Virus record (IMG/VR): IMGVR_UViG_3300009135_000001
Coordinates: 11,255-75,254 of that record
Source of the DNA: a virus
DNA length: 64,000 nt
Strand: one strand, 5' to 3'
The notes under the pieces are model-generated. The model did not search any database, was not told the DNA's origin, and saw only the letters and a program-made list of their open reading frames with translations. Numbering within the stretch: position 1 is the first letter of the stretch; each line of letters starts with the position of its first letter. Positions 1 to 60,455 of this stretch are shown here, piece by piece. Position numbers and translations under genes: made by a program.

Positions 1-330
1 GCGCTCGCATGTACGTACAACGCTGAGATGCAGATCGTGGAGCAGCCTAGCCAGATCATTGTCGAGGACAAACGCCCGTGGATATCAATCGAGGAGTATA
101 GAGAGGACAGCCCTGGCGTACCGTACGATGAGTTTGAGTTCCCTGAGAAAGCGATATACCTCGTAGGGAATTCGAACTGGCGTCACATGAGTGATGTATT
201 CGAGGTTGACCACATTATCAATGTACCAACCCCGGGAGGATATGACCACCCCCTATACGGGGATCAGGTCGCTACGATTGTTCTTCAGCAGCAGCTTGCT
301 CAGCAGCTAAAAGGCGGTTGTGAAAAGTAG
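1..330 (+). CDS. Hypothetical protein, 5'-truncated (probable end of a tail-region gene)
   Basis: Frame is open from position 1 to TAG at 330; precedes the late virion genes. Confidence 0.55.
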   Translation, partial: ALACTYNAEMQIVEQPSQIIVEDKRPWISIEEYREDSPGVPYDEFEFPEKAIYLVGNSNWRHMSDVFEVDHIINVPTPGGYDHPLYGDQVATIVLQQQLAQQLKGGCEK

Positions 331-484
331 CCAGCTTAATCTTGAGCCCCACAATGATCTCAGCCTGTTCCACGGTAATGGGAACGGCTTTGACCAAATT
401 GAGGGTATTCATGATATCGTTGGACGTTAACTCCACCGGATCTACTTCAGAGGTAGGCGGCGTACTATTAGGCTTTTCGTTCAT
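272..484 (-). CDS. Small helical protein on the strand opposite the late operon
   Basis: 70-aa ORF with protein-like amphipathic composition; overlaps the previous ORF tail-to-tail by 59 nt. Confidence 0.45.
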   Translation of the reverse strand: MNEKPNSTPPTSEVDPVELTSNDIMNTLNLVKAVPITVEQAEIIVGLKIKLATFHNRLLAAEQAAAEEQS

Positions 485-549
485 GCCTTATGGTACCATA
501 GGGAAACAGCCCCGTGCAACGGTTTATACACTCCTTGGAGGAAAGCTAC

Positions 550-963
550 GTGAAGTTTGATGTTTCCCAAGACCCGGAATACTTGGATATTGCAGCAGAT
601 ATTATAGGCGTCCCGACATTCGACGCGGATATGACATACACAATAGGCGTGTTTGACGCTGCTTGTGAGTTCCAAGCTGTCATATTATTCAACAACTGGG
701 AGGAGAAGAACGTGTCGATACACATCGCGTCCGTTTCTCCTAAGTGGGCAACCAGAGAAGTTCTCAAGGTAGCCTTCACGTACGCGTTCCTAGAACTCGG
801 CGTGCAGCGTGTCACAGGCACGGTGCGCGAAAACAACACCAAGGCCCGCGCTTTGAATTTGCGCCTCGGCTTTAAACAGGAAGGCGTGATGCGCCAATTT
901 TATGATACCGGGGAAAGTGACATTATCTTCGGTATGACCAAAGACGAGTGCAAGTGGATTTGA
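550..963 (+). CDS. GNAT-family acetyltransferase (RimJ/RimL-like), virion-associated type
   Basis: Motif RENNTKARALNLRLGFKQEG; GGAGG Shine-Dalgarno before GTG at 550 (ORF track start at 514 is probably overextended); typical position before podovirus ejection genes. Confidence 0.85.
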   Translation: MKFDVSQDPEYLDIAADIIGVPTFDADMTYTIGVFDAACEFQAVILFNNWEEKNVSIHIASVSPKWATREVLKVAFTYAFLELGVQRVTGTVRENNTKARALNLRLGFKQEGVMRQFYDTGESDIIFGMTKDECKWI

Positions 964-1626
964 ATGGGTAAAAAATCAAAAAAGGGTGAGACTCCTAAGC
1001 CGTCGAAGCAAGAAGTGGCGCTGGCTAATGTAGCTGAGAAGAAGTTTTCTCAGTACAAAAAGCTGTACCGCCCCCTCGCTAAAAAGAATTTGGCTCGCAC
1101 CAAAGCAACGAAAGGAAGAATCAGAGAGAACCAAGGCATCGTTAATGCTGATATCCAGCAGGGGGCCACAGGCCGTGACGCTGGTATCCTGCAAGCGAGC
1201 CTGTTCGGCCGAGGGCCGCAAGCAGGTTCTAGTAACCGGTCTATTTTCTCCCGTGGCGCAAGCGAAAAAGGTCTCGGCGTAGCCCGAGGCGCTGGTATGG
1301 CTCTTGCTAGGGCAGGCACTGAAACCCGTGGGAAAGAAGGTAAGCTGCGGCACATCGCGCTCGGCCACGGCATCGCCCGTGATAGCATGCAATCTCAAGC
1401 TACTCTGGCGTCAAATGCCACATCGAGAGCAATCCAACAGTCTCGAATTGATTTGGAAAAAAGCAACCAGCTCGCAACTACTCTCGGCCAAGGTTTCGGC
1501 GCGTTCATGGGCATGGGCGGCAAAACGCCTAGCGGCGGCGGCGGGGGCACAATGCCTTCTGGCTTAGGCTCCGGCGGCACGTTCGGTTATTCGACCAATC
1601 CTAACGGCTATGTGGGTGGTTTCTAA
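964..1626 (+). CDS. Putative internal virion/ejection protein (Gly/Ala-rich)
   Basis: 220 aa, Gly/Ala/Gln-rich, basic N-terminus, located in the ejection-gene cluster. Confidence 0.65.
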   Translation: MGKKSKKGETPKPSKQEVALANVAEKKFSQYKKLYRPLAKKNLARTKATKGRIRENQGIVNADIQQGATGRDAGILQASLFGRGPQAGSSNRSIFSRGASEKGLGVARGAGMALARAGTETRGKEGKLRHIALGHGIARDSMQSQATLASNATSRAIQQSRIDLEKSNQLATTLGQGFGAFMGMGGKTPSGGGGGTMPSGLGSGGTFGYSTNPNGYVGGF

Positions 1627-2309
1627 TGGCTTTAGGCGGCAAACTAGGAGAAAGATTTAACCCCGTGTCCCGCAATGGCAGGCAGGACAGCTATGGAAAA
1701 GGCGGGTTCCGCAAGTTCACTAAAAAGAAGAAGAAGGCGAAGACGAAGAGTCCAGACGCCATACTGGCTAATATTACGAATGAGGAGTTCGCGATATATG
1801 AGTCAGACTTCCTCCCCGTAGAGGAGCAGCTGATTGAAGAGGCTACTGACAAACAGTCTGGGAACAAAGCAGCCGAGGCTGCGCTGAAAGATTCGCTAGA
1901 AGGATTCGACAGACAAAGAAAACAATTCGACCGTGGCCTTGGCCGCTCAGGTATAGAGACCACTGGCGCGCAACAAGCCAAACTCGACAAAGGTTTCGAC
2001 AGAGCCAGGACCAGAGGCGGCGTAAACGCTGCGAACCTCGCACGTCGTAATCAGATACAAGAAGACGATGAAACTATTACTGACCTGGTTAATGCAGGGC
2101 AGAACCTACGTGGTGTATCATTACAAGGTCTCGGCGCGGCAAGTAACATGCAGCACGCCCGTGAACAGCAAGGCCGCGCAAACAAGGCGCAGGCCAGTAG
2201 CAACTTCATGTCTAATGTAGGTACAGGCGCTGGCATTGGTTTCTCAATTGGCGGGCCGGTTGGCGGTGCAGTAGGCGCTGGCGTCGGCGCACTGGTATCG
2301 TTGTTTTAG
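1626..2309 (+). CDS. Putative ejection (pilot-like) protein with C-terminal Gly-rich hydrophobic segment
   Basis: C-terminus GTGAGIGFSIGGPVGGAVGAGVGALVSLF (glycine-zipper-like), as seen in DNA-injection proteins. Confidence 0.7.
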   Translation: MALGGKLGERFNPVSRNGRQDSYGKGGFRKFTKKKKKAKTKSPDAILANITNEEFAIYESDFLPVEEQLIEEATDKQSGNKAAEAALKDSLEGFDRQRKQFDRGLGRSGIETTGAQQAKLDKGFDRARTRGGVNAANLARRNQIQEDDETITDLVNAGQNLRGVSLQGLGAASNMQHAREQQGRANKAQASSNFMSNVGTGAGIGFSIGGPVGGAVGAGVGALVSLF

Positions 2310-2318
2310 GATTATAGA

Positions 2319-4316
2319 ATGGCATTTGGAACAGGTTTTTTACAAGGTCTACAAGTAGGGCAGCAGTATCAGCATAACCAAACGCTGATGAACCAGCGCC
2401 AAGAAGACCGCGACCGCGAGCAATACGGCCGTGATCTCGAAGCGCTGATGAACGACTGGAACAATACTAAAGGCGACCGCGACGACGACGAGTTTGTACA
2501 AAGCGATGAATTTCTTGCCCTCACGAAACGCCACCGTGGCAGCAAGGTTTTCGAGAAAGCCATGCAGACGGGTAACACCGGCGGCAAATACACAAAGATG
2601 CGCGACATCGTGCAGAACCCCAACGACCCTGACAAGACCGTACTCATTGTAGACACCTACGACAAGGACGGTAAGCTGATAAGTAAAGGACGCCCTGTCA
2701 CCGAAGGCAGGGGCTCACGCGAAGATGACCCTGGTGGCAGAGTCGCGCAGTTCAGCAGGAACGATATATACGCAGGCATCGTCGGCGCTATGCAGCAGTC
2801 AGGCGACTTCAAAGATCGCCGTGGCATCGCCGATCGATTTGAAGCCGCACTGATAAAGCCTGATCAAGCAACCAAAGGGTTAGGGGCCGGTGGGGCACCC
2901 GCTATTAGCGACCCGACTAAACCTACGCCTCCGGTCATTCCAAAAGAAGGCGCAGTCGAAGAAAGCGGCGCGAAAGCTACCCCTGTACCGGAAGAAGAGC
3001 AGGTTCCAGCAGAAGAGATTCCTACGGCTGAACAAGTTGAGGAAGAAGTCGGCGCGTTGCAACAGCGTTACGGCGTACTTCGTGCTGAGCTGGACGAACT
3101 ACAAGACGTAGACGCCAGGCACTCTGGACAAATGACTCGCCAGCAGTATGTGCAACATCGCCGTGAACTGGGTCAGAAGACCGATGAGCTTACGCAGGTT
3201 CAAGGTGTGCTCGATGAATTGACCGGCTCGTCTACTGCGCGTAGAATGGGCGCTTCACTGAGTGAAGTCCCCGGCAATATCGCCGAAGGCGTAGGTGAGT
3301 TTGGAGAAGCAATTGCTAACATCCCCGCTGTCAAAGGTGTTACAGACGCAGTGTCCGAGTTCTTCGGTGGACTCACTTCTGGTGAGGGAACGCCACCTCC
3401 TCAGGGGACGAAGTCGAGCGAACGGTTTGAGCATGGGTCTGAAACTCAGGCTAACGCATCAAAGAAAGATAAAAAGGGACCCCTCGATCCAGCTAACCTT
3501 AAAGATCGTACACGAGCGCAACAGAATAAGATTGAACAAGTCGCAAAGGACACTGCCCTCGCCGTAGCGAATCAGCAGAAGCTGAACCGCAAGATGATGG
3601 GCGACTATCGGAAAGCCTTGCGGGCGCAGGTGCTGCACGGCGACATCACTGTCGCACAGGCCACTACCAGCTACTACGCTGTGCTGGCGGCGAACAAATC
3701 GAAAGACAAGTTCAAGCTGCATCTCGATAGCTCGAATGGCGTAGCGTTCACCATCAATGAAGCCGATGGCACGGTCAGCCGCAGTAAGTATGCTGACGGT
3801 GCTAACGGTGATAAGACTGCGGCTGCGGCTTCTAAAGTAGAAGAGAAGCATTACAAGCGCCTCGAATCTGTCGCGAAGTACATCGAGACTCAGTTCGGCG
3901 AAGGTGAGGATGCTAACTTCATGGCTCTCGCTGACCAAACTTCTGATGCGCTGAACATCTTGTCCACCCAACCTGGCTTCCACGCCACCATGCGCGATGC
4001 GTACGGCAGGTGGAAGGCTGACGCTGCATCCGAAGCAAACTGGAATCCCTTCCTCAGCGTACGTGGTGCTCAGAACAAACGACCTAGCCTCACTCCTTAC
4101 CTAGCCGCTAGAGTACTGGCTGTACCGGAAGGCGAACAGGAGGCTATGAACGACTTTGCAGCTGAACTCGCGTACCTCAACGGTGGAAACACTTTGAGCG
4201 AAGCAGAGTGGGCGGGAATACTGGGCATGGCTCAAGAGAGAAAGAACAGCGGTTTGCTTGGGCAGGAAGCCCTCACGTCAATAATTGAAGAAATCCGCGC
4301 AAGCGCAGGCCAGTAG
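2319..4316 (+). CDS. Putative internal virion/ejection protein
   Basis: 665 aa, starts MAFGTGFLQGLQVG, helical composition, gene context. Confidence 0.65.
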   Translation: MAFGTGFLQGLQVGQQYQHNQTLMNQRQEDRDREQYGRDLEALMNDWNNTKGDRDDDEFVQSDEFLALTKRHRGSKVFEKAMQTGNTGGKYTKMRDIVQNPNDPDKTVLIVDTYDKDGKLISKGRPVTEGRGSREDDPGGRVAQFSRNDIYAGIVGAMQQSGDFKDRRGIADRFEAALIKPDQATKGLGAGGAPAISDPTKPTPPVIPKEGAVEESGAKATPVPEEEQVPAEEIPTAEQVEEEVGALQQRYGVLRAELDELQDVDARHSGQMTRQQYVQHRRELGQKTDELTQVQGVLDELTGSSTARRMGASLSEVPGNIAEGVGEFGEAIANIPAVKGVTDAVSEFFGGLTSGEGTPPPQGTKSSERFEHGSETQANASKKDKKGPLDPANLKDRTRAQQNKIEQVAKDTALAVANQQKLNRKMMGDYRKALRAQVLHGDITVAQATTSYYAVLAANKSKDKFKLHLDSSNGVAFTINEADGTVSRSKYADGANGDKTAAAASKVEEKHYKRLESVAKYIETQFGEGEDANFMALADQTSDALNILSTQPGFHATMRDAYGRWKADAASEANWNPFLSVRGAQNKRPSLTPYLAARVLAVPEGEQEAMNDFAAELAYLNGGNTLSEAEWAGILGMAQERKNSGLLGQEALTSIIEEIRASAGQ

Positions 4317-4318
4317 CC

Positions 4319-5908
4319 ATGGCCGAGAACGGGTTCAAAAAGTTCTTAGCCGGGAAAGTCCGCGACGCGGACACTTTCGAAGATGAATCAGGAGAAGGCT
4401 TACGTCTGCTCGGCGTAGACGCGCCTGAGGCAGGCACCCCTGGAGGCGAAGCAGCCACATCTTTTGTAAAGAGCGCCTTGGACAAGCGCCAGCTTGAACT
4501 CAAAGATACTGGACGAACTGGCTACTACGGCAGAAAGCTCGTAGAGGGTAAGTTCTCTGACGCAGAAACCCCGCTCGGCGCTCACATGATAAGCCTCGGC
4601 CACGCCCGCCCATCGCCTGGCAGTGAGTTCGACGAACTAAACAACCTCGCAGAAAGCTCATCCACCACCTCCCGTGTGCTCGGTCTACAGGATCGTGGCG
4701 TACAGAATGAGATCGATCTTGACTTGAGTGGGAACAAAGCTTCTGATTTCAGGAGTCGCAGAGGAACGTTCGGCAAAGCAGTCGGCCGTGGCGTTGACAA
4801 CGTACAGCAGCTCGGTTACTCGGCAGCCAATGTCGGAGCGATGGCTCTCGGCGACCTGTTCGGGACTGAGATATTAGACTCTTGGGGCGAAGAAGGTTTG
4901 AAGCGGAATATGATAGAAGCCGCAATGAACCCCGCTGAAGTACAGACATGGGACGATGTTGACAGTTTGTCAACTGGATTCACCTATGTGCTGGAGGCTC
5001 TCGGTGAGCAACTTCCTAACATAGCCACTTTGGTAGGCACTGGCGGCGTCGGTGCTGCCGCTAAGTTTGGCGTATCGAAGGCAGTACAGGCTGGTATCCA
5101 GAAGAAGCTTTCACAGTTGGCCCTCAAGCAGGGTAACAAAATGCAAGTCGCCAAGATGACGAAAGGCAGCTCCGGTTTCACCCCCGGTATAGCCGCTGGT
5201 TCATTCGGTTTTGGCACCGGTGAGATCGGAAATGAACTGAGGGACGCGGGTATTGATTCCCCCGCCACAGCTTTGTTGGGAGCAATTCCGTTTGCTGCTC
5301 TCGATACATTGGGCTTCCAGTCAACAATCGGAAGGTTATTCAAAGGCATAAATAAGGACATCGCCACTCAGTCCGTAAAGGACATCGCACGAAGTACATT
5401 CAGGGCAGCTGGCCTAGGTGCCGCTGCTGAGTCATCAACGGAGATGTTACAGGAGGTGATCACATTATCTGCCCGCGCATTCCACGATCCGACTTTCGAG
5501 ATATTCAGCGATGAGAACTTGGCAAGAATCAAAGAAGCTGGTATAAAAGCAGGTATCGTAGGTGGCGTACTGGGCGGCGGCTCACAAGCTGCCGTATCAA
5601 CTGTAGGCAAGCTCACACAACCGGCAGCACCATCGACGGAGACCGAGGGGGCGACGGCCCCACCGGGAGCTACACCACCTCCCGCAGCACCCGCTGCGGG
5701 AGTCACGACTTTTGCTCAACGGGATTCGAACTTCGAATACATACCAGATGAAGCTACTGTACCAGCTCAAAGCGTCTTCGAGGATGCCCCGGCCGATGCT
5801 GTCCTCTCAATTAAGGGTATGCTCAAAGAAGAGATTGAGCCAGCGCTTGCCGCCAACGAAAATCAAATTAACGCCTACGAGGCGTTAAAGGCGTGCCTAG
5901 CCTCATGA
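4319..5908 (+). CDS. Ejection protein with N-terminal SNase (thermonuclease-like) domain
   Basis: VRDADT...RLLGVDAPE...GGEAATSF...YYGR matches the SNase signature; Gly/Ala-rich helical remainder. Confidence 0.75.
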   Translation: MAENGFKKFLAGKVRDADTFEDESGEGLRLLGVDAPEAGTPGGEAATSFVKSALDKRQLELKDTGRTGYYGRKLVEGKFSDAETPLGAHMISLGHARPSPGSEFDELNNLAESSSTTSRVLGLQDRGVQNEIDLDLSGNKASDFRSRRGTFGKAVGRGVDNVQQLGYSAANVGAMALGDLFGTEILDSWGEEGLKRNMIEAAMNPAEVQTWDDVDSLSTGFTYVLEALGEQLPNIATLVGTGGVGAAAKFGVSKAVQAGIQKKLSQLALKQGNKMQVAKMTKGSSGFTPGIAAGSFGFGTGEIGNELRDAGIDSPATALLGAIPFAALDTLGFQSTIGRLFKGINKDIATQSVKDIARSTFRAAGLGAAAESSTEMLQEVITLSARAFHDPTFEIFSDENLARIKEAGIKAGIVGGVLGGGSQAAVSTVGKLTQPAAPSTETEGATAPPGATPPPAAPAAGVTTFAQRDSNFEYIPDEATVPAQSVFEDAPADAVLSIKGMLKEEIEPALAANENQINAYEALKACLAS

Positions 5909-6120
5909 AACTATCCCGCAGAAAACTAGCTGAGCTCCAGAACAAAGGCGTCATCAAGCAGGAACTGGACGGCTCTATCACTCAGGTTAAGGACATCCCA
6001 GGAACAGCCCCAGTCTCGCTATCTGATAATAAAAAGCGTTCGTGGAAGGTCCACGATTTCGAGCGTGACTGGGACGGTTTTATAACCGCCGTGGCCATCA
6101 CTGAGACCACCGAATTATGA
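5905..6120 (+). CDS. Hypothetical protein (first gene of the inserted cassette)
   Basis: ATGA overlap with the upstream stop; 71 aa. Confidence 0.65.
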   Translation: MKLSRRKLAELQNKGVIKQELDGSITQVKDIPGTAPVSLSDNKKRSWKVHDFERDWDGFITAVAITETTEL

Positions 6121-6365
6121 GCATTGCTGTGACAAACGACGAAATTGCCGACCGCCTCGCGAAACACGACGAGCGCATGACTAGCGTGGCCGCGACTGTG
6201 GAGAGAATTGAGAAAGAGCTGGAGCCGTTAACGGAACTGTACGAGGACATCGCAGCAGTTGGCCGTTTCGGGAGAGGTTTAGGTAACATAATCAAGTGGT
6301 TTGGCGGTGTGGCTATAGCAGTCGCGGCGATTTGGGCCACCATCAAAGGGTATCGACCATGGTAA
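6117..6365 (+). CDS. Small coiled-coil plus C-terminal TM protein (holin-like)
   Basis: Heptad N-terminus followed by hydrophobic IIKWFGGVAIAVAAIWATI. Confidence 0.6.
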   Translation: MSIAVTNDEIADRLAKHDERMTSVAATVERIEKELEPLTELYEDIAAVGRFGRGLGNIIKWFGGVAIAVAAIWATIKGYRPW

Positions 6366-6640
6366 AGTGGGCTAGAGAACATCCGTACAAAGCAGCAGTG
6401 CTAGGTTTGGCGCTCCTTATCATACTCACCGGAGCTCTCGAAGAAGTCAGAGCAGCTGAAAACCCAACAGTCCTAAACAAAACACCGTATGGTTTCACGT
6501 TTGGAATGGCCGACGGCAGCAGACGTTTCTGCGCTCTCGATTCGGAGACCACAGTTAAATGTGTAACTGACCAACAAACGATACTCAACTGTAAATACGA
6601 GGACGAACCGGTTTACTTCTCCGGTTGTAAGGAAGAATGA
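6359..6640 (+). CDS. Hypothetical exported protein
   Basis: Start MVKWAREH at 6359, signal-peptide-like AAVLGLALLIILTGA, four Cys. Confidence 0.6.
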   Translation: MVKWAREHPYKAAVLGLALLIILTGALEEVRAAENPTVLNKTPYGFTFGMADGSRRFCALDSETTVKCVTDQQTILNCKYEDEPVYFSGCKEE

Positions 6641-12658: not shown

Positions 12659-15600
12659 ATCCTGCCTGGCCAAAGTTAAGAAAGCTGGTTTCGACACCAG
12701 CACGCTACCCCTGTCTGAGCTAGAAATATCCAGCAACCCCACTGCGGTCATAGACTCAGAGCTTACACAACTTCGTCAGGAACACGAAGAACTTTTCACT
12801 ACGCGTGAACGCCTGATGGAACAGGTGCGTCAATTCTCCCCGGAGATGAACGAAGCTATTCAGGAGCATATCGATGAAGAAATCCAAATTAATAAACCCT
12901 CCAGGCCGATTGGGCCCAAACAACCCACCCCCGGAGAGCAGGCGGGGCTTGCTGGTAGGAATGCTGTTGGCCTCCCTAAACAGCCACAGAAACAGACCCC
13001 CCGTCCTCTTGCAAACCTTGAGCAAGCAGTCGAGACAAAGAAAGCCACGGTTGGAGAAGAAGAGGCGGCTAAAGTCAGCAAAACTATGGCGGTCTTACGT
13101 CGAGCTCAGCGGGATGGCAAGGAGTACCACGAGCTAAGTACTGGGTACGCAGTACGAAAGGCTGTGGCTGCTGGCAAAATGAAAGAGATACGGGCGATGT
13201 TTCCTGAGGAGACATCTAATACTGCGGCCATGAAGAAGTTCCAACAGGTCGCCAAAAATCAAACCTCTACGGAGAAGAAAGATGATTCACCGGTATTTAA
13301 CAAGCGACAAGAGAAACAACTTGGTGCATTCAACAAAGACACCATCGCACAGAGAAGCGATGAAGTGGCACCTCGTGGAGAAAAGGAAACTAGCGATGAT
13401 TCGCAACTTGAAGGCGTCACCGAGCAAGAACAACAGCCAGTCGAAGTTCGCATCGAGCCGTACGTCAATAAGAAAGGCAAATCTACGGAACTTAGCGGCG
13501 TGGTTGGCATCGCCCGGCGGATCAAGAACCTTATCCCCGGCGCAACAATGTTCAGAGAAAGCGCAGGTGGGGGGCTAAGCACCTATGTCATCAAAGTGGA
13601 TAATGCAGAGCAGGGCGCGTATGATGGAACACCGCAACAACTTGCGGCCCAGCTTACCAAGACCTTCACTGACGGCAAACGTACGGACAAGAATAGACTC
13701 ATCCTATATGACAAAAGCGGAGAGGCAATTCCTGTTAACTCCCGGGAAATCACCAAACTTGGCGCTATCGTCGACCAAACCACACAAGACGCTTCCATGG
13801 CTCCGGTCGAGAAGTCAGGCAAACAATTCAATGCTGGCCTAGCCTTCCTGATGGTTGAGGGCAACCTGTCCCTCCAGAAAGTCAGGACAAAAGCGAAAGC
13901 AAAGAAGCCGCCCTCACCGTTGGACAACAAGTCTATCAACGAGGCGTGGAACATGCTGCCGAAATTCCTTCGCAGCGTTATCAAACAGCTGACGTGGATG
14001 ACCCCCGCTGACAAAGTGATAATCATCGAGAAGCACGGTGTTGAACCACTGGGCCTGGCGCAGCAAGCGAACAGCTGGATATTCATCAACAAAGAAAAGC
14101 TGGCTAAGAGCAAGCATGGCGACCTCAATGCGCAGGTTGTCCTGCTGCATGAGTCTGGACATATTGCTGACGCTGAGTTGAACTACGAGCCACGTAACGA
14201 TTGGCTCACCAACGACATGCTGGTGAAGTATTACCAGTCCGGTACGAACCCGAAAGATCCGATGCATCAGGTCTTCAAGCGTATCTTCAACCCCGATGGG
14301 AACTATACGCAGGAAGAGTGGCGCAAGGAAGTTGTGGCCCAGCTCTACATGGCGTATCATTTGTACCCTGACCAATTAAAAGCGTACAGTCCCGAGGGCT
14401 ATGCGTTAGCGGAGAGAATCAATGACGAGCTACAGCTCAAAGCAGACTTCCTCGCCAGAGAGCAAGAGGCTCGCGAGGCAAGCGGTGCGGCAGGAAGAGG
14501 CCGAAGTGATGGGCAAAGCCAAGGCGTTGCGGAATCGCAAGAAAAAGCAGAAGGAAGCGAAGGAAATCTTGACCTTAGCACCGTAATCGATGGCCGTGGG
14601 ACAACCGTTGCACAAGCTGCTGAATACATATCTACCCGTAAGAAAAAACCGGCAGATTTCGACCCGCGTGATATTGAGGAAGTTGCGGGTGAGGTCGAAG
14701 GTGAAGCAGACACCCGAGCCTTTGAAACTGACGATGCGCAAGCGGCTCGCAGCTCTGGACGCTCTAAGACCGCACCTGAGCTTATCGGGGAGACACTTCG
14801 TCCGAAGACGGTTAATCCGTCCAATGAGGAAGCAAAGCGTGTCTTCGATGCGTCAACCGAGCGTAAGGCATTCGGGAAGATACCGTCAGCGTTCATCGCT
14901 GTTACCAATAAACTATTCGGCCAACTGGGTATCAAGACTAAAGTTCTTGTGGTTGATAAGGCCGGGGCGCAGGAACTGCTCAAGGAAACGGGGCTTCCGT
15001 CTCAATGGGCGGACAATCTCAAGCAGGCTATAAACGACGAGCCTGTCGGGCGGCTCATGCTATCCGACAGCAGCAACGCGAACGAACGCTTTGCTATCAT
15101 CTACATCGACACCAAACAAACCCCCGCTAAAACACAGCGTGCGCTGCTCCACGAGCTTGGTCACATCGTGCAACTTGCGAAGTTAGATCAAGCCTCGCCT
15201 GAGATTCAAAAGGCTCTCAGGGACGCACACGAGGGCTCACAGACCCAAAAGGAATTCGAGGAGTGGTTCGCGGATCAACTTCTCCAGTGGGTTGACAGCA
15301 AAAAAGCTCCCAAAGGCGTGCTCGAACAGTTCTTCAAGGAGTTGGCACGAGTCTTGCGTCGGGTCTACAACAAATTCAGCGGGGCGCATCCTACTTATGA
15401 GCAATTTATGGATAGCTTGGTTGCTGCAAACCAGCTTAAGAGAGGAATGCAGAAGCCAGCATCGGGGAAACATCGTCGTGATTGGATTGAAGACATGCGT
15501 AACAGCGTGGATTCGCCGTTCCTTGCTCCGCAAGAGCGCTCTTTCTACAATTTCAACGGTGATCCGTCCCCTACCAGGGCTGGAGTATCCAGTAAAGCTG

Positions 15601-17572: not shown

Positions 17573-17600
17573 TAAGTACAATGTACAAAGGACAAAGTAG
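17573..17600 (+). repeat. Heptamer array (consensus AAAGTAC)
   Basis: TAAGTAC AATGTAC AAAGGAC AAAGTAG upstream of the endolysin gene. Confidence 0.55.
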
Positions 17601-19918: not shown

Positions 19919-20161
19919 TTAGTTGTCCAGGTTACGACGCCAAGCGGCGTAGTCAAAAAGTGGGATTTGGTGTTTGCGGGTGGTATCTGCCATATCCAAG
20001 TATGTTACTGTAAGGTATGCGCCTGCAAAGGTCAAATCAGTCAGCTGATAAAAATTGGTGATCCCGATCCATGCCATGAAGTCTTCTTTGTTTTCATGGA
20101 TGAATAGGTGGTGTTCTTCGATTAAATGTACTGCACGTAGGATACTCTTGGCTTGGTTCAT
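19919..20161 (-). CDS. Hypothetical protein
   Basis: Operon-coupled ORF. Confidence 0.55.
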   Translation of the reverse strand: MNQAKSILRAVHLIEEHHLFIHENKEDFMAWIGITNFYQLTDLTFAGAYLTVTYLDMADTTRKHQIPLFDYAAWRRNLDN

Positions 20162-20478
20162 AGGATGCTCAGGGTTGTGATCAGGTCTTCGGTGTTGGCG
20201 GTTTTGAGGTCAAGTTCTTCAAGCTTTTTGGATGCAGCATTTCGCTGTATCTCTTTGGCCTCTTCATATGCTGCAATGCTGGAATGGAAGCTTTTGAAGT
20301 AACCCAAAAAGATAACCGTACCGGATTTGTAAAGACGAACCCGCCACCGTTTTTTGGCAGCTTCATAATAGATACCTTTCGGGATGTCGCTTTTGTACTT
20401 CCGATAAAATTTCTTATCGGGTAGCACTAACGCGGCGCTTAAAAGCCCGCCAGTGGTCGTCGTTTGGAGCGAGCGCAT
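20158..20478 (-). CDS. AP2-like DNA-binding protein
   Basis: KGIYY...KRWRVRL....IFLGYF....AAYEEA pattern; true start is probably downstream of 20478. Confidence 0.65.
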   Translation of the reverse strand: MRSLQTTTTGGLLSAALVLPDKKFYRKYKSDIPKGIYYEAAKKRWRVRLYKSGTVIFLGYFKSFHSSIAAYEEAKEIQRNAASKKLEELDLKTANTEDLITTLSIL

Positions 20479-20833
20479 AGAGAAAAATGTCTAAAATTGA
20501 TGGAGCGAATCCTGAGAAGAAATCATACTCAGGGATTTGTTCAGCATATACTTCAATTTTGTTCGGTTGTGACATTAGTTCATCTACCATCATTCTGATG
20601 ATCGCCCTTTTTTCCGGTTCTAACGGGAAGAATGGGGGGTGCGGATATTTGTCGTCGAGATATTGTATGCAAGTCGACATACCGCGAATTTCTAAATTTT
20701 TATCCCTAATCATTATGCCTGGGGAATCGAGGATGATCCCACACTCTGTAGCCATCAGGTCTTTTCTGGCTAGACACTCCTTGATAACGGGATACATCAC
20801 GTCATCAGGGTTGTAAATTTTTATTGGCCGCAT
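20414..20833 (-). CDS. SspA-like (GST-fold) protein
   Basis: CIQYLDDKYPHPPFFPLEPEKRAIIR resembles SspA [23 protein letters not shown]. Confidence 0.65.
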   Translation of the reverse strand: MRPIKIYNPDDVMYPVIKECLARKDLMATECGIILDSPGIMIRDKNLEIRGMSTCIQYLDDKYPHPPFFPLEPEKRAIIRMMVDELMSQPNKIEVYAEQIPEYDFFSGFAPSILDIFLYALAPNDDHWRAFKRRVSATR

Positions 20834-21201
20834 GTGAATTCAGATATCCAGTCAGCTATTTCTTGGCAGCTGATTGCTTTGCTGAGGTCGATAGGCGCAA
20901 ACATGTCTCCGCCTGTAAGTATAACTCCAGTTCTAGTCCCGAGTCCCACAATAACTGCCACGTTACGTCCTTGTTCCATTCTGTCACGGAGCCATTTCTT
21001 TTGTAGCTCAGACAGTGCAGGAGGTTGTTTCGTAGACTTTGGCGGCTTCGGTAAATGCTTGTATTCGATCCAAAGGTCCGCCATTGGGCCTGAATAATAT
21101 GCGTCAGGAACTCCAGCGGTGAACCGGTCGGAAATTTTCCAAGTATAGACAGTATGTCGGAGTAACTTTCCAATTTTTCTGGTGTATCCTGATTCATTCA
21201 T
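20821..21201 (-). CDS. VRR-NUC/Holliday-junction-resolvase-like nuclease
   Basis: AGVPD...WIEYK...LSELQKKWL PD-(D/E)XK pattern; start MNESG at 21201. Confidence 0.75.
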   Translation of the reverse strand: MNESGYTRKIGKLLRHTVYTWKISDRFTAGVPDAYYSGPMADLWIEYKHLPKPPKSTKQPPALSELQKKWLRDRMEQGRNVAVIVGLGTRTGVILTGGDMFAPIDLSKAISCQEIADWISEFTCGQ

Positions 21202-21236
21202 AGTGTCGCCCCACCCGTAGGTGGGGCTGTCTCTGC

Positions 21237-21872
21237 CTAGAGCATGTTTTGCGCACGACTGCGCAGGTTCCAATGAGATTCCATCTTCTCATTTTCCCCT
21301 ACTGCTTTCAAGCGGCAGGTGGGGAATGAAGCAGATGGATCGAAGGTGATTTCTGTTACCAGGTTGATAGGTAGAACAGTGTTCTTGTTGCAAGAGTCCA
21401 TGTAGGCACCGAAAGACTTCAATGCAGTCGGCGTCAGATCCAGTGTATAGATCGGCGCGTTGGCATCGGCGTCAGGAGTAACCAGAGCAAGGCGGACTTT
21501 GTTTTGGCAAGCTTTGCCGCCACGTCCGTTTGCTGCTGAACCCCAGTCGTTCATCGGGCAGCCATCACAGGATGGTGCGATCGGGTTTTCGATTTCAGGG
21601 GCCGGTTTCAACCCATCTTGGCTCTCGCTGGTTGCGGAGCAGTCAGGGCGGTTACTTGATTGCCCATCCCACATAGCCTTGTAATAGGTGTTATTGAACC
21701 GGTAATCCAGGATAACCGCTGTAAGGGTGTTGTTCTTTACCTTTTCCCCGTCGGGAAGGGTGAACTCTTTGCCCTTTGTATTGATCCGTCCACCGGAAGG
21801 CAGGATATTCGTCTTCTGCTTTTCGATTTCCTTCGCAATTTGTTTTTGTAATGTTGCTAATTGTTGTGACAT
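21237..21872 (-). CDS. Putative ssDNA-binding/annealing protein
   Basis: CDGCPMNDWGS...KACQ Cys cluster; located in the replication/recombination module. Confidence 0.55.
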   Translation of the reverse strand: MSQQLATLQKQIAKEIEKQKTNILPSGGRINTKGKEFTLPDGEKVKNNTLTAVILDYRFNNTYYKAMWDGQSSNRPDCSATSESQDGLKPAPEIENPIAPSCDGCPMNDWGSAANGRGGKACQNKVRLALVTPDADANAPIYTLDLTPTALKSFGAYMDSCNKNTVLPINLVTEITFDPSASFPTCRLKAVGENEKMESHWNLRSRAQNML

Positions 21873-28974: not shown

Positions 28975-30186
28975 TTAAGCGTCCGATATTTCTAGGAACA
29001 CTGATTCGCCGAATTCAGGCTCGGCCGATTCCCTGCACGTCCGAATCCAAAGAGTCGGGTAGTCAGGTTCTGGAAAGTCTGTGTTTGCATATCCGTCCGT
29101 CAGGTATACAAGACATTCCGGTGGTGTTGTCATATTTTCTTGAACCCAATTAAAGACTGGTTCGAAGTCCGTTCCACCGTGACCGCGACATTTGAGCTGT
29201 AGTGGTAGGTCTGACGGCTCATATTCATCGGTCCGGTGGACGCGGGTGTTGCACATTAACACGGTCATTTTGCTTGGCGGGCAATCTTCCAAAATTGCAT
29301 TGATTTCGCCCTGAAACTGCTTGATTTCTTCGTTCGAAACACTGCACGAATCGTCTATTGCGATGACCACCTCGCCCATGGCTTCTGACCATGCGGAGGG
29401 GAGATACAAGCCCTGACTGATATAGCGTCTGTTGCCTTTTGCCCATGTGTAATCCGATTTGTCTGATTGAGTTAAGAAGCGGCGTAGGATCTCTTTCCAT
29501 TCGATCTTTGGAGCGAGGATATCCTGCATAAGTTCTTCTATTCCACCTGGGAGGTTCCCTTGCATTTTGGCAGCTTTCGCGGCTTGTGCAGTTGAGATTT
29601 TCCAGTCGTCGTCAAGTTCCTTATCTGACTGTGGAGTTGTCTTTCCCTGGCCGTTTGATGGATCGTCTTTACCAGATCCTCCAGTTGGAGCGTCGTTAAT
29701 TCCGGAAAAATTCGGTGGGCCTTCTCCATCGCCGTCTTTATCGTCATCTTCGTCCTCCAGTTTGTTATAGACTACTTCTGCTGTCATGCCTTTGTATTGC
29801 ATGTCACAGGGAGATTCCGGTGGAAGCTCTAAGTCTTTGCACTCACTTAGGATGATGTTGACTACGTGATCGCAGGCTCTGTCCCATTTCTTGATTTCGC
29901 GCTCCCCACGACGTATGGGGTGACCAAGTGCGCAGTGCATCACGTTTTGTGCGATGCCTCCGACGAGTTGGAGTTCATTCAATTCATGGATGTTCTCAGG
30001 GTTGAAGAATAGGTTGACGCCGTCGACATGCATGTACTTGATTTGGTTAGTCGCGACGTAGTTGAGTTTCAAGGCTAACGACCCAAAGAATGGATGGTCA
30101 AGAACCAGGTTGGCTTTTGCTTTACGCAGCCCTTCGTGTATCAGCTTTGGGTCGATTGGTGGTTTTTCTTCGGTTTCGCTCATCAT
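28975..30186 (-). CDS. DUF2201-type metallopeptidase-like domain plus VWA domain
   Basis: HPFFGSLAL..DG..FNP; MIDAS DDSCS, GGTDF and LTDG intact; HExxH site reads QNVMH. Confidence 0.85.
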   Translation of the reverse strand: MMSETEEKPPIDPKLIHEGLRKAKANLVLDHPFFGSLALKLNYVATNQIKYMHVDGVNLFFNPENIHELNELQLVGGIAQNVMHCALGHPIRRGEREIKKWDRACDHVVNIILSECKDLELPPESPCDMQYKGMTAEVVYNKLEDEDDDKDGDGEGPPNFSGINDAPTGGSGKDDPSNGQGKTTPQSDKELDDDWKISTAQAAKAAKMQGNLPGGIEELMQDILAPKIEWKEILRRFLTQSDKSDYTWAKGNRRYISQGLYLPSAWSEAMGEVVIAIDDSCSVSNEEIKQFQGEINAILEDCPPSKMTVLMCNTRVHRTDEYEPSDLPLQLKCRGHGGTDFEPVFNWVQENMTTPPECLVYLTDGYANTDFPEPDYPTLWIRTCRESAEPEFGESVFLEISDA

Positions 30187-33018: not shown

Positions 33019-33499
33019 TGGGTATAAACCTCTTGATTTCTGGTAAGCGCTGCAAAGCTTTTTCTACGGTTGTTTCCCTTAGCGCTATTTCTGCACCCCT
33101 TAGGAGAGCATTAGCGGCTTCATCCATTTCGTCTCTCCGTTTGAAATAGTTGTAGATTGCTTCGGGCACGTCGTCGGGACTGGTTTCGATGGTTAAGTAA
33201 TAAGAATTTTGGTCGTCGCTTATTCGGAGAACTCCGTACGCTTCGTTCGGCAATTCTAACCTGAATGATCCTACGTTTGTTATCCGTACGTTAGCGTGGC
33301 TCCACGAACATTCATAGAAAAACTTGTGAATGGATGGGTCCATTTTGAGATGGTCGGCGAGATGTAAGCAAGTCTGCCAATCAGGAACCGAAAGCCGTTC
33401 CTTGGCTTCGTTGAAAAAGTTCCTGATGTTAACGCGAACCGTGCGCCGTATTTTTTCGTTTGTTCTCACAATAGGATGTCCGTGTTGTCGGCGATCCAC
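33005..33499 (-). CDS. Hypothetical protein
   Basis: Operon-coupled ORF. Confidence 0.6.
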   Translation of the reverse strand: MDRRQHGHPIVRTNEKIRRTVRVNIRNFFNEAKERLSVPDWQTCLHLADHLKMDPSIHKFFYECSWSHANVRITNVGSFRLELPNEAYGVLRISDDQNSYYLTIETSPDDVPEAIYNYFKRRDEMDEAANALLRGAEIALRETTVEKALQRLPEIKRFIPNETK

Positions 33500-34455
33500 T
33501 CGGCCATTTCCTTGGTCTCAAGAAGATCTGGTGAACGTTGGATGGTCATCTTGACCGTCGGTACCTGGAATTCATCAGGCATACGGCGCAGATATTCGTT
33601 GACCTTCGGAATGTTCTTGTCGGTCATGTGCTCTGAAAGCATACCTGCGGTAGCGTAAAGTGATGCTGGCTCTGATGGCATTGGAGTGCCTTTCGGGTCT
33701 TTTTCGATAGACTCGATGTCGGGCAGATCACGATAGATACGAATGTATGACATGAATTCGCCTGCTGCTGCCTCACCCACTGTGGCAATTAACATTTCGT
33801 ATTCCAGGTCAGGTGTTGCAGAGTTCAGGATGCGAGATGCATAGGCCCAAGTACGAGGTGTAGCGAACTGACGTGCGTCGGATGCAGCGTGGTCTTCTTC
33901 GTGCAACATTTCAGGACGAAAGCGCATGAAAGAGATAATTTCAGGACGTACGTTGTTGCTGTTCGCCCAGTCAACCCAGTCTTGAAGTTGGGGTTCGAAA
34001 TCGATGTGGATCAGCCTGTTGTTCAGTGCTGATGACATCTTGTTGGCGAGGGCACGATCTTTCGCACGGTTGCCTGCGCAGATGATACGCCATCCTTCGG
34101 GCAGTGTGTAGTCACCCACTTTGCGATCGAGGATCAGTTGGTAGGCAGCTGCTTGTACTGCATGAGAGGCCTGGTTGATTTCATCAAAGAAGATAACACC
34201 TTCAGGCTCAACATCGGGGTTGGGTAAGAAATGCGGGACGTTCCATACTGTGTAGCCATCGACACATGACGGGATGCCACGGATGTCAACGGGGTCCATT
34301 TGAGACAGACGTACGTCTCGGACAGGGAAGGATTTGCCAGCGGCGACTTGGAAAACGACTTCGGATTTACCGACGCCTGGGGCTCCCCATATCATTACGG
34401 GGATATCGGCATCAATACCGATGTTGATAGCTGCTTCAGCTTTTGACGGATTCAT
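33466..34455 (-). CDS. MoxR-like AAA+ ATPase
   Basis: GAPGVGKS Walker A, FFDEIN Walker B, AGNR, ALNNRL, TPRTW. Confidence 0.9.
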   Translation of the reverse strand: MNPSKAEAAINIGIDADIPVMIWGAPGVGKSEVVFQVAAGKSFPVRDVRLSQMDPVDIRGIPSCVDGYTVWNVPHFLPNPDVEPEGVIFFDEINQASHAVQAAAYQLILDRKVGDYTLPEGWRIICAGNRAKDRALANKMSSALNNRLIHIDFEPQLQDWVDWANSNNVRPEIISFMRFRPEMLHEEDHAASDARQFATPRTWAYASRILNSATPDLEYEMLIATVGEAAAGEFMSYIRIYRDLPDIESIEKDPKGTPMPSEPASLYATAGMLSEHMTDKNIPKVNEYLRRMPDEFQVPTVKMTIQRSPDLLETKEMAEWIADNTDILL

Positions 34456-38870: not shown

Positions 38871-38945
38871 TGGCTCCAGAGCTTGGGATCGAACCAAGGA
38901 CAGCCGACTTAACAGGCCGGGGCTCTACCTCTGAGCTACTCTGGA
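38871..38945 (-). tRNA. tRNA-Asn(GTT)
   Basis: Full cloverleaf TCCAGAG...CT-GTT-AA...TTCGATC...CTCTGGA-G-CCA. Confidence 0.92.
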
Positions 38946-39507: not shown

Positions 39508-39580
39508 TGGCGAAGCGTGAAGGGTTCGAACCTCCTCGTTTCGGTTTTGGAAACCTAACCGTCCCAAGACTGTACGCTCC
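39508..39580 (-). tRNA. tRNA-Trp(CCA) with shortened D-arm
   Basis: Acceptor GGAGCGT/ACGCTTC, loop TT-CCA-AA, T-arm and CCA present; D-arm only GTC-TTGG-GAC. Confidence 0.7.
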
Positions 39581-41579: not shown

Positions 41580-42236
41580 CTATCTTACCAGGTGGCTGAC
41601 TTGTACGGTGATCAGTTCATCGACCTCAACACCAGTGTCGCGGTCAAACTCCCAACCACCACGTGCGATGATCAGGTCGTCAGTGACTCTCTCGACAACG
41701 AGGTCCATGGGTATCGTGCCAGCGAGCATCCGATGAATGGTGTCGCCAGCCTGCACGTCACGGAAGCTCATGTGGTGTGGACTTCAGCGATACCGCGTTG
41801 GCGTGTGATGCTCTTGACGCCCATTGCGCTGTTGAAGTTCTTGTCGACCCAGGCCATGACTGCGGTCCAGTCATCTGCGACGACGTTGTATGTGTTGCCA
41901 GATAGGGCTTCGACTTTGAATAGGCGTTGGGGGGTTTTGTCTTTGCTCATGATAGTATTAGATATCCGTGGATGATGGTTGAAAGGATGAAGGCCCAGCC
42001 GATGATCTTGGCTTGGATGCCTGGCATGTTGTCGGGATCACTTATAGCCATGATGACTGCTGTGATGATGACTATGATGAATGTAAATATCTGCATTTTT
42101 GGTCTCCAGACCGTGTCACTTCCAAAGCGACACAGTACGTTGTACGAGGTACTTTGCGTCCAGGTTTCGATGAAAAGCTCGAATCCTAAATGCGAATGAT
42201 TCTCAATAAGTGCTGTTTTGTGCACACTTTGAGGGG

Positions 42237-42482
42237 GTGCTGTGCCACTTCATGGCAGGGTGATGTTCTCACTTTGTTCTCACCCTCGCGGTGGAACGCG
42301 AGCATTATTGGGGGGGTAAGTCGTTGTAAAGTAACGAATTACTAAATATATACATTTTAGGTACAAAGTACAAAGTACTAAGTACGAAGTGCTGTGCCAC
42401 TTTGCCTCCATGTTGGCCCACAGAAATTAAAAAACTGTAAATATAATTTCCGTGGCCAAACATAGGAGTAAAGTGGCACAGC
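42237..42482. repeat. Iteron-like repeats; putative replication origin or regulatory region
   Basis: GTGCTGTGCCACTT at 42237 and 42389, inverted AAGTGGCACAGC at 42471, heptamer array 42358-42392, AT-rich tracts. Confidence 0.6.
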
Positions 42483-47185: not shown

Positions 47186-47671
47186 GTTAACTCCTTAGTC
47201 AGTGAGAATGAGGTAGTACCACATCATGTGCTATGAAACTGTAAGACACACAATATGTTGTGGTATGGGCTAGGGCCTGGTACAGCATGCAATTAGTACG
47301 CTATAGCAGCGCCCAAGAGCACGCCTACTGGGTACGCCGAGACGATGATCCATAGTACGATGAACGTGGTACTGCGTACGTAGTGTATAGTGCTATGTGA
47401 CATGGTATTACTCCTGTTGTGGGTGAGTTCATGATATATACCAGTTGCTGAGCTTGCGAGGCACTGCGCACGTGGCACTGTGTACATCGTGTGTAGAGGA
47501 ACGTTTGGGGCCCCATATTGGCGTTGTACTTTGAACTTGGTACGGTGTACATCGGAATCGGTGCGGAGTCGGAAATCTGGGACAGGGGTATGTGGAATAT
47601 GGACGACCAGAACGCATATTTCGCACGAAAAAAATTTTTTGGATATTTTTGGGTATTTTTTTGGGTATCGC

Positions 47672-47700
47672 TTGACATATGTATAGGAAATCCCTATATT
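47672..47700 (+). promoter_or_regulatory. Sigma70-type promoter
   Basis: TTGACA-17 nt-TATATT, preceded by phased T-tracts at 47636-47662 (UP-element-like). Confidence 0.8.
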
Positions 47701-47745: not shown

Positions 47746-48150
47746 GTGAAATTGAAAGACCTCGCCCATGAGGCTCGAATGATTCGAATAGAAGAGACCA
47801 GGGCTAATAAAAGTCACAACTACCAGCTCCAAAACGAATTACATGCACACAGGGTCGGACCTTTGCGTTCCCACACCCGTGAGACCTTGCTCTCCTACAT
47901 GTACTTGCGTGGTTACCCCTACGATGCCGTGGAGGTCACTGGTAGTAAGGAGATATCACCCACAGGAAAGAAAAACATCCGCCGCATGTGCAAAAAGTAC
48001 GGCGGAGTAGAAATGACGCTCGATGAATGGATTTCGGGTAATCGATTAAGGCGGGGTAGCTCAGGAGCACAGAGCGCCATTAACTTGGAGGTCGTAAGTT
48101 CAACTCTTACCCCCGCCACCAAATTTGCCTCGTTAGCTCAGTCTGGTTAG
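47746..48150 (+). CDS. Conserved phage protein whose frame runs into the tRNA cluster
   Basis: LKDLAHEARMIR..HR..LRG..KYG pattern; TAG stop lies in the D-loop of the CUA tRNA. Confidence 0.6.
   Translation: MKLKDLAHEARMIRIEETRANKSHNYQLQNELHAHRVGPLRSHTRETLLSYMYLRGYPYDAVEVTGSKEISPTGKKNIRRMCKKYGGVEMTLDEWISGNRLRRGSSGAQSAINLEVVSSTLTPATKFASLAQSG
48050..48121 (+). ncRNA. tRNA-like RNA with 2-nt D-loop and degenerate anticodon arm
   Basis: Perfect acceptor GGCGGGG/CCCCGCC, T-arm GTAAG-TTCAACT-CTTAC, ACCA end; D-arm GCTC-AG-GAGC. Confidence 0.65.
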
Positions 48151-48204
48151 AGCGCCGCGCACTAAACGCGGATGTCGGAGGTTCGAATCCTTCACGAGGC
48201 ACCA
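48127..48204 (+). tRNA. tRNA with CUA (amber) anticodon and non-canonical A33
   Basis: Complete cloverleaf: GCCTCGT/ACGAGGC; GCTC/GAGC; CCGCG-CACTAAA-CGCGG; GGAGG-TTCGAAT-CCTTC; ACCA. Confidence 0.8.
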
Positions 48205-48253: not shown

Positions 48254-48381
48254 CGCCAAATGTGTCATATAACGGTCATAAAGCGGCTTAATGCGCCATA
48301 TATGAGACATAGCACCTTGCACTTCGTACCAAGTACGTCGTACTATGGCAGTCCCACAGCCCTACCAAGCATAATGCGAAG

Positions 48382-57395: not shown

Positions 57396-58082
57396 ATGCT
57401 TGGCAGCGTAGTTATCGATAGGGCCCAAAGGATACTCAATGACACCACCGCCGTTAGGTGGCTAGCTGCCGACCTCCTTGATTGGCTAAACGAAGGGCAA
57501 CTCGCCGCCGTGCGTATTGCCCCCGAAGCCCATACAGTCACCGCAAACATGATACTCGCTGTAGGTGTAAGGCAGAACCTTACAGCTATGGCTGTTATCG
57601 CAACCACTGAGGTACCCCTACGGCTCATCGAAGTCACCCGTAATGTGACCGACGCCACTGGGCTCCCAGCACTTCGTGCGATCCGCTTGGTAAATCGTAG
57701 GGCGCTAGATCAGGCTAACCCTGACTGGCCCACCGATACCACCAACGCACAGGTCGAGAACTACATGTTCGACTCGCGCAACCCCAAAGAATTTATGGTC
57801 TACCCTCCGCAACCAGCGGCAGGGTTTGGCTTCGTCGAAGTCGTGTATTCAGCAGAACCTGCGGCCCTCGCCCTCGATTCTGACCCAATCGTCCTCGACG
57901 ACTCGTACGCACCCGCACTGGTAGATTATATTGTGTACCGCGCACTTAGTACTGACGCTGAGTACGGCACAAATCCTGCCCAAGTCGCGCAGCACTTCAA
58001 CCAGTTCATGGGTGCCCTTACACAAAAGAGTGGGATTGACGCTGCTGTCGAACCTGCTCCCGCTACCACACCGAGTGAATAA
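57396..58082 (+). CDS. Head-tail adaptor (tail tubular A-like)
   Basis: DTTAVRW..LLDWLNEGQ, ALVDYIVYRALS..AEY pattern. Confidence 0.75.
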   Translation: MLGSVVIDRAQRILNDTTAVRWLAADLLDWLNEGQLAAVRIAPEAHTVTANMILAVGVRQNLTAMAVIATTEVPLRLIEVTRNVTDATGLPALRAIRLVNRRALDQANPDWPTDTTNAQVENYMFDSRNPKEFMVYPPQPAAGFGFVEVVYSAEPAALALDSDPIVLDDSYAPALVDYIVYRALSTDAEYGTNPAQVAQHFNQFMGALTQKSGIDAAVEPAPATTPSE

Positions 58083-58795
58083 TGCCTAATACCCTTGGAT
58101 ATTACTACCCACGGCTGAGGCTCAGCGCTGCGCAAGCGCCCGAGATGTTGCTCGGCGACTCAGTACTTCGTGCGATGGCCACAATAGCTCGCGAGACAGG
58201 TGCTTTGCGACAAGACATAACGCCCATAGCATTCGTCGATGGGACAGCGACATACGCAGTTGCGATCGATGGCTTCAAAGTCATCGACTACACAAACGTA
58301 TGGTTCATTGAGGATAGCACCAATACCTCAAAGACAGACGACGACGCCTTCCCGCTGGAACGCACTTCGCACAACGATATGCACGTCAAACTGCAAGATG
58401 ACGATATCAGCCAGCGCCCTGAAGTATGGTCGCACAGCGTAGGGGCAGCGGGCTCAATCTCAGTGTACCCGTTCAACATCAACCCTGCCTTGGCCAATGC
58501 ACAGCTTCAAGCCACCGCAGAGGTGGTTCCTATCCGCTTGGCAGCACAGAATTACAACATGGACGCTGACACAGCGCACTGGGGCTCGAACTCGTTCTAC
58601 GAAATCAACGAAGAGTTGATCTTCACCCTTGCACTGGCGTATCTGATGGAGTACCCGAATAAAGGGTGGTCGAACCGTACGTACGCCATGGAGCTCAAAC
58701 GCCAAGCCAGTTTCGCCATAGGAGAGCAGAAGTCGCTTGCAAATGACGACATGCGTTCCGGATATCCAAGGGCCGTGAAATATGGCGGCTATTAG
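58082..58795 (+). CDS. Second adaptor/tail protein
   Basis: Coupled; located between adaptor and nozzle. Confidence 0.6.
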   Translation: MPNTLGYYYPRLRLSAAQAPEMLLGDSVLRAMATIARETGALRQDITPIAFVDGTATYAVAIDGFKVIDYTNVWFIEDSTNTSKTDDDAFPLERTSHNDMHVKLQDDDISQRPEVWSHSVGAAGSISVYPFNINPALANAQLQATAEVVPIRLAAQNYNMDADTAHWGSNSFYEINEELIFTLALAYLMEYPNKGWSNRTYAMELKRQASFAIGEQKSLANDDMRSGYPRAVKYGGY

Positions 58796-60452: not shown

Positions 60453-60455
60453 ACA

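Follow-up and report, generated by a model that had tools for sequence, protein, structure and literature searches.

The window analysed here comprises 64,000 nucleotides, positions 11255-75254 of a 75,483-bp IMG/VR record that CheckV rates as complete. On its minus strand, at 20414-20833, an ATG-started open reading frame encodes a 139-amino acid protein with a miniaturised and almost certainly non-catalytic GST fold, nearest to SspA, which we refer to as mini-SspA. Both the frame and the motif described in the earlier note were found, with the quoted motif covering residues 58-80 and its P-H-P residues 64-66; direct reading of the sequence and alignment to SspA chains place the codons for P64-H65-P66, the equivalents of SspA P84-H85-P86, at 20636-20644 (minus strand). 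The 3' end of the gene is overlapped by 65 nt by a second minus-strand open reading frame (20158-20478, 106 aa, start codon uncertain), assigned as an AP2-type DNA-binding protein gene from PHROG, Pfam, modelling, Foldseek and synteny. At the other end, the start of mini-SspA is overlapped by 13 nt by the 3' end of its upstream neighbour (20821-21273, minus strand), a phrog_35651 member of 126-150 aa that is syntenic in all loci. An 80-aa open reading frame (19919-20161, minus strand) lies right after the AP2 gene and is conserved in close relatives.

The phage is podovirus-like, encoding a portal, a major head protein, internal virion proteins, DNA polymerase A and a primase. Two divergent gene arms run from ~47.7 kb, and the mini-SspA/AP2 pair sits at the far end of the ~29-kb leftward early/replication arm, always after an SNF2 helicase, DUF7307, a ~210-aa gene and a ~125-aa gene; the module before the pair consists of the primase (DUF5906), a PD-(D/E)XK nuclease, the SNF2 helicase and DUF7307. 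The two ends of the record, 1-6622 and 68875-75483 (window 57621-64000 and beyond), share a 6.6-kb repeat (98.8% identity). The genome proper measures ~68.9 kb, as in a 68,696-bp relative, and two strain variants were probably assembled into the record in a wrap-around manner.

A word-indexed search returned six to seven close homologues of mini-SspA (46-76% identity; 127-141 aa, mostly 139-141), across which K62-Y63-P64-H65-P66 is invariant and the longer block K-Y-P-H-P-x-F-x-P-x-x-P-E-K is identical. HMMER, run exhaustively against 1.8 billion cluster representatives, found 49 that match, nearly all of 140-170 aa, and ~40 of the clusters are more distant, at 126-185 aa; all counts given below for the wider family come from an alignment of 47 clusters (126-185 aa, median 153). 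Synteny was kept at every locus fetched, and the mini-SspA gene is real and conserved, not a chance open reading frame. Every homologue is metagenomic, and a scan of IMG/VR gave a single relative. Cultured phages yielded no copy, whether the region was searched by megablast or the protein and two distant members by tblastn, the matches being host sspA only, and the best 80 matches listed in prokaryote genomes were almost only gammaproteobacterial cellular SspA genes, with the short phage-type form absent among them. Among cultured phages, the nearest relatives have Pseudomonas, Aeromonas and Paracidovorax as hosts, and Acidovorax AP1, MW202615, KPP25 and phiA008 lack both the mini-SspA and the AP2 gene in a search whose positive control worked. 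The gammaproteobacterial host proposed in the earlier note is thus plausible but weak, since the motif matches among those best 80 are almost all gammaproteobacterial SspA, whereas Paracidovorax is a betaproteobacterium.

Profile comparisons placed mini-SspA nearest to SspA. Its best NCBIfam match was the SspA model NF007016 (E 7e-5; 22.3 bits against a cutoff of 314; residues 44-85 only), which describes full-length SspA equivalogs of ~210 aa with both GST domains complete, a form that mini-SspA does not have. Searched against the PDB as a single protein, it matched SspA 3LYP (2.8e-5) and MglA best; a profile of the close family again put 3LYP first (3.7e-7), followed by 1YY7 and zeta-class GSTs. 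The 47-row profile ranked eight SspA-type chains at the top with 56-60 bits (1yy7, 4dej, 4qq7, 4hoj, 7c97, 6v91, 6wmu and 3lyp), in alignments spanning alpha1 to alpha6, then zeta-class GSTs with 50-54 bits, Francisella SspA with 40 and MglA with 35. The SspA-like identity put forward in the earlier note is borne out by these searches, with a lead of SspA over zeta-class GSTs of 3-6 bits. Pfam and PHROGs gave nothing for the protein of the window, GST families included; a few distant family members match the GST_N or GST_C models and phrog_9684.

The AF2 model of mini-SspA (pLDDT 83, pTM 0.77; good in the best of five models only) has strands at 3-7, 27-30, 41-44 and 47-50 and helices at 14-23, 52-62, 73-88, 92-97, 113-121 and 126-137. 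This is a GST fold (VIA-align Z 13.5, rmsd 3.0 over 139 residues aligned to 4qq7; Foldseek TM ~0.7), with the thioredoxin-like N-terminal domain and helical C-terminal domain of the superfamily, minus helix alpha2, most of the alpha4/alpha5 hairpin and the C-terminal helix. That the protein is shorter than SspA, as had been noted, is accounted for at these three places, where SspA is longer by ~12, ~30 and ~45 aa, respectively, or ~87 residues combined. By fold, SspA tied with tau- and zeta-class GSTs in both Foldseek and VIA-align, and the subfamilies were indistinguishable. We describe mini-SspA as a GST-fold protein that by sequence is closest to SspA, by a narrow margin.

The residues of the glutathione site are missing from this family. 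The GST 'ES' motif is replaced by G-[FLT], with Gly at the Glu position in 39 of the 47 clusters and no Ser next to it; no residue is conserved at positions 8-16 of the 47 clusters, where the catalytic Ser, Cys or Tyr would lie; and the cis-Pro, kept in 17 of the 47, is missing from the sub-lineage of the window's mini-SspA, which has I40 there. Because it lacks these residues as well as alpha2, most of alpha4/alpha5 and the C-terminal helix, mini-SspA is no SspA orthologue and almost certainly no enzyme. The best explanation of the sequence comparisons is that it derives from, or is sister to, the SspA lineage, having lost the glutathione site and ~70 residues.

In E. coli SspA, residues R65, R82, F83, P84, H85, P86 and Y92 contact sigma70 region 4 and the beta' zinc-binding domain of RNA polymerase (RNAP) (PMC7515715), and changing PHP to AAA abolishes binding (PMC7515715; PMC11879090). 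The corresponding residues of mini-SspA are K45, K62, Y63, P64, H65, P66 and E72. The P-H-P between alpha3 and alpha4 is thus present, and K45, K62 and Y63 are conservative replacements of R65, R82 and F83; Y92, which contacts the beta' zinc-binding domain, has become a glutamate. Across the wider family, P64 and P66 are each kept in 46 of 47 clusters, a basic residue at 62 in 43 and Tyr or Phe at 63 in 44, and position 65 is His in 14 of 47, Tyr in 11 and Phe in 4. A zeta-class GST also carries K-Y-P-E-P-P-L-L-P, following the pattern [KR]-[YF]-P-x-P-P-L-L-P. Because His occurs in only 14 of 47 clusters and [KR]-[YF]-P-x-P-P recurs in a zeta-class GST, the motif is suggestive of SspA and not diagnostic of it on its own. 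The retention of the PHP motif claimed in the earlier note holds for this protein, together with the flanking K62 and Y63 and with K45; Y92 is not kept, and the histidine is variable in the wider family.

The second gene of the pair was examined with an HMM built from five AP2 proteins. Counting only loci with enough downstream DNA (n=14, including clusters P0010, P0012, P0016, P0017, P0018, P0020 and P0030), an AP2 open reading frame lies directly after mini-SspA or overlaps it in 14 of 14, down to ~25-30% identity, and the pairing is obligate. In close relatives the frame is present though uncalled, and in distant relatives a version of 75-80 aa lies right after mini-SspA. The AP2 domain itself is recognised by a Pfam match (PF00847) in 2 of 5 family members, with a best E of 1.5e-5 and the window's own copy below threshold, and by a model in which a three-stranded sheet (36-39, 44-51, 54-61) packs on a helix (64-92), the tail helix being ill-defined when modelled alone. 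Foldseek gave weak matches to the AP2 domains of TEM1, WRI1 and ERF1, and a sequence search of the PDB gave no match. The PHROG matches are to the AP2 part of HNH-AP2 endonucleases and to HNH endonuclease families only; the protein has no nuclease domain, and its C-terminal tail is conserved in the family. We hold the identity and the pairing of the two proteins with high confidence.

Structure prediction supports binding of this tail (residues 86-106; 20161-20223, minus strand) to a mini-SspA dimer. Two copies of mini-SspA modelled with the AP2 protein gave complex scores of 0.87, 0.87 and 0.88, compared with 0.00 for the best of three controls, a level that 58 of 80 solved complexes attain, as do 2 of 110 mismatched pairs; these three-chain runs used unpaired alignments (5 rows for the AP2 protein), which differs from the calibration set-up, and the loosely similar complex of the PigR tail on MglA-SspA (6WEG) is solved, so that part of the score may come from likeness to it. 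The runs share at least 70% of their contacts, with a partner pLDDT of 76-77. In the predicted interface, AP2 residues 86-97, 99-100, 102-104 and 106 meet residues 72-85, 92-99, 106-108 and 114 of one mini-SspA copy and 36-37 and 45-50 of the other, putting the tail on alpha4/alpha6 of the first and on the beta3-beta4 hairpin of the second. The tail touches both copies with low expected error, the homodimer having been assumed as input, and from the model we infer that it fills a cleft across the dimer about where the missing alpha5 would pack. As in the MglA-SspA/PigR type of complex, then, a partner's C-terminal tail is predicted to dock on an SspA-type dimer. The PHP motif lies outside the predicted AP2 interface and K45, the equivalent of SspA R65, inside it; because of K45, docking of AP2 and docking of sigma could compete.

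Several SspA-centred systems offer precedents for such a pair. The SspA proteins themselves (E. coli 7C97/7DY6/6WMU, Y. pestis 1YY7, P. fluorescens 3LYP) are, like mini-SspA, GST folds without GST activity; they are its best profile match and share the [KR]-[YF]-P-H-P-P between alpha3 and alpha4 and a basic residue at the beta3-beta4 turn. They differ in having ~212 aa, as opposed to 139 aa without alpha2, most of alpha4/alpha5 and the last helix, in having Tyr where mini-SspA has Glu, and in the histidine that varies in the wider family of mini-SspA, which moreover is phage-encoded and has no sspB neighbour. In Francisella, PigR, a separate DNA-binding protein, docks its C-terminal tail on the MglA-SspA dimer (6WEG, 6WMT), which is thought to link it to sigma70-RNAP where the promoter has a poor -35 element (PMC9304144). 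The predicted course of the AP2 tail across two mini-SspA copies resembles this arrangement, but the partner is an AP2 domain and not a winged helix, the dimer is assumed to be a homodimer and not a heterodimer, there is no sign of ppGpp dependence for the phage pair, and both genes are phage-borne and overlapping. Phage P1 provides a third case, in which the late-promoter activator Lpa (gp10) needs host SspA as a co-activator on host RNAP (PMC1891329). P1 borrows SspA from its host, whereas the lineage described here would carry its own shrunken version, and no homology to Lpa was seen in the mini-SspA/AP2 pair. Zeta-class GSTs, including maleylacetoacetate isomerase (2CZ2, 1FW1, 1E6B), are the second-best profile matches and have a similar Y-P-x-P-P-L-L-P linker, but they are full-length and catalytic, unlike the mini-SspA family with its missing glutathione-site residues.

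The earlier note had stated that the phage has no RNA polymerase of its own in the window, and this holds for recognisable families throughout the full 75.5-kb record: no T7-type RNAP was recognised in a search run without a positive control, nor was region 2 or region 4 of sigma70 matched. Pfam assigns no family to six large virion ORFans, and five of them compared with PHROGs gave nothing or 'virion structural protein'. Because of these proteins a cryptic polymerase is possible, and dependence of the phage on host RNAP is no more than likely.

Candidate DNA targets of the pair were sought in the genome. The spaced repeat GTAC-N3-GTAC occurs 19 times where ~1 is expected, and 8 times against 0.9 in the 68.7-kb relative; these two pair-bearing genomes are close kin, so that the enrichment is effectively one observation. 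Four relatives without the pair had counts of 0, 0, 3 and 0, with no enrichment, and the partial loci of distant relatives, which hold little DNA, have one site each against 0.1-0.2 expected. In this genome the cores, spaced at 7 bp, form arrays of 3-5 units, and the spacing count located them at 13138-13160, 17573-17600, 42135-42155, 42358-42392, 47369-47553 and 48312-48346. They include arrays ahead of the first packaging gene and of the endolysin gene, and others between the divergent arms and at ~42.36 kb, where the array at 42358-42392 is intergenic, AT-rich and origin-like in appearance. The array at 48312-48346 (plus strand) is closely followed by a -10-like CATAAT and by the first packaging gene (ATG 48382) and is, with low confidence, a candidate target of the mini-SspA/AP2 pair, the link to AP2 being an inferred one.

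Other promoter-like elements were seen in the same region. At 48348-48381 (plus strand), a stretch consisting of GCAGTCCC-ACAGCCC, 7 nt and CATAAT, with its end 6 nt ahead of the ATG with which the first packaging gene starts, is also conserved in the sister genome; it may drive synthesis of a leaderless or near-leaderless mRNA as a promoter. The GCAGCCCC box is not enriched in this genome (2 occurrences against 4.1 expected), and one copy, ahead of the first packaging gene, is shared with the sister genome. A near-consensus sigma70 promoter lies at 47672-47700 (plus strand), with TTGACA and TATATT separated by 17 nt and A/T tracts in front; it is directed into the rightward packaging/structural arm, and the sister genome does not conserve it. 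A promoter and terminator scan found no excess over shuffles.

Taken together, mini-SspA and the AP2 protein probably form a phage-made transcription factor. The AP2 domain would bind specific phage DNA sites, its C-terminal tail would occupy the predicted cleft of the mini-SspA dimer, and the free K-Y-P-H-P surface of mini-SspA would contact sigma70 region 4, the beta' zinc-binding domain or both on host RNAP, and would thus bring the host polymerase to phage promoters, probably late ones, or keep it there. Such an adaptor would be the phage-encoded equivalent of Lpa acting with host SspA in P1, or of Francisella PigR plus MglA-SspA. It is the reading we prefer, and we place it just short of an even chance. 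Several lines of analysis point to it, namely a profile nearest SspA with most of the contact residues kept or conservatively replaced and the enzyme site lost, the obligate AP2 pairing, the predicted docking, the lack of a recognisable phage RNAP or sigma factor, the Lpa and PigR precedents, and the position of the pair at the far end of the ~29-kb early/replication unit, a typical place for a late activator. It is weakened by the rarity of His65 in the wider family, the change of Y92 to Glu, the motif likeness of a zeta-class GST, the 3-6 bit margin, the undiscriminating fold comparison and the location of the gene within a replication module. A more specific version, which we consider doubtful, is that AP2 reads GTAC arrays at or upstream of the -35 position of late promoters and a tail-held mini-SspA dimer clamps sigma70 region 4 and the beta' zinc-binding domain, replacing -35 recognition.

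The main rival to RNAP contact is that the AP2 protein and the mini-GST form a replication or recombination factor, such as an origin or iteron binder with its adaptor, in which the GST fold would act as a protein-protein module and not touch RNAP. We regard this as rather unlikely. The pair always ends the primase (DUF5906)/PD-(D/E)XK nuclease/SNF2 helicase/DUF7307 module, the array at 42358-42392 occupies the AT-rich origin-like intergenic site, and GST folds serve as non-RNAP adaptors elsewhere, an example being FzlA (a weak match; Z 12.7). However, by sequence the family is closest to the RNAP-binding SspA group, no surface patch is better conserved than the sigma-contact residues, and other heptad arrays stand directly before packaging and endolysin genes. 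The same order across 14 of 14 deeply divergent loci, in overlapping reading frames, also makes it very improbable that the AP2 frame is a decayed HNH-AP2 homing endonuclease beside an unrelated gene, with a meaningless pairing; its only PHROG matches are HNH endonuclease families, but the nuclease domain is absent and the tail is both conserved and predicted to dock.

The earlier note had also suggested a dominant-negative mimic of host SspA, which would occupy its site on sigma70-RNAP or heterodimerise with it and thereby block programmes that depend on host SspA, for example the switch to sigmaS, acid resistance and CRISPR adaptation. CRISPR adaptation and stress responses are abolished when host SspA is lost or its PHP is changed to AAA (PMC11879090). 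Mini-SspA keeps the PHP surface, and MglA illustrates heterodimerisation within the SspA family. Nonetheless this idea is weakened by its poor fit with an obligate DNA-binding partner, as a simple competitor needs neither strict coupling to AP2 nor a docking tail, and Y92 is not kept. In typical GSTs alpha2 and alpha4/alpha5 contribute to the dimer interface, and here alpha2 and much of alpha4/alpha5 are deleted; we judge a competitive mimic improbable. Finally, that mini-SspA is an ordinary small GST or glutaredoxin-type enzyme, acting on glutathione or as an isomerase, agrees with its fold and with the close second place of zeta-class GSTs in the profiles, but is barely credible given the missing Pfam GST match for the window's protein, the replacement of ES by G-[FLT], the lack of a conserved catalytic Ser, Cys or Tyr, the absence of the cis-Pro in its sub-lineage and the deletion of helix alpha2 and the H-site helices.

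Proteins of the SspA family are known as host factors used by P1 or Francisella to re-aim sigma70-RNAP, and in the literature searched we found no paper on a phage-encoded SspA-like protein or on a mini-SspA/AP2 pair, the pf16 phage paper being about SspB. If the proposed contact with host RNAP is correct, a phage's own SspA genetically joined to a DNA-binding partner would define a minimal functional SspA core, offer a compact two-gene system for studies of sigma70 tethering and represent a new class of late-gene regulator for phages without their own RNA polymerase; should the pair in addition read GTAC arrays in place of a -35 element, it would be a phage-borne minimal counterpart of PigR/MglA-SspA. 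Were the link to RNAP wrong, the pair would still be an undescribed, widespread GST-fold/AP2 combination of uncultured podophages.

Other features of these genomes were observed along the way. The window holds four tRNA genes, at 48050-48121 and 48127-48204 (plus strand) and at 38871-38945 and 39508-39580 (minus strand), one with a CUA (amber-reading) anticodon and one with an anticodon that ARAGORN could not read; the large open reading frames are open in the standard code. A DUF2201 metallopeptidase/VWA protein and a MoxR-like ATPase (phrog_1297), encoded at 28975-30186 and 33466-34455 (minus strand), are separated by a few genes, a DUF3150 gene among them. In a distant phage with mini-SspA (locus L105, 12292-13109), Tad2-like (anti-Thoeris) and Band_7 genes lie near the lysis cassette.
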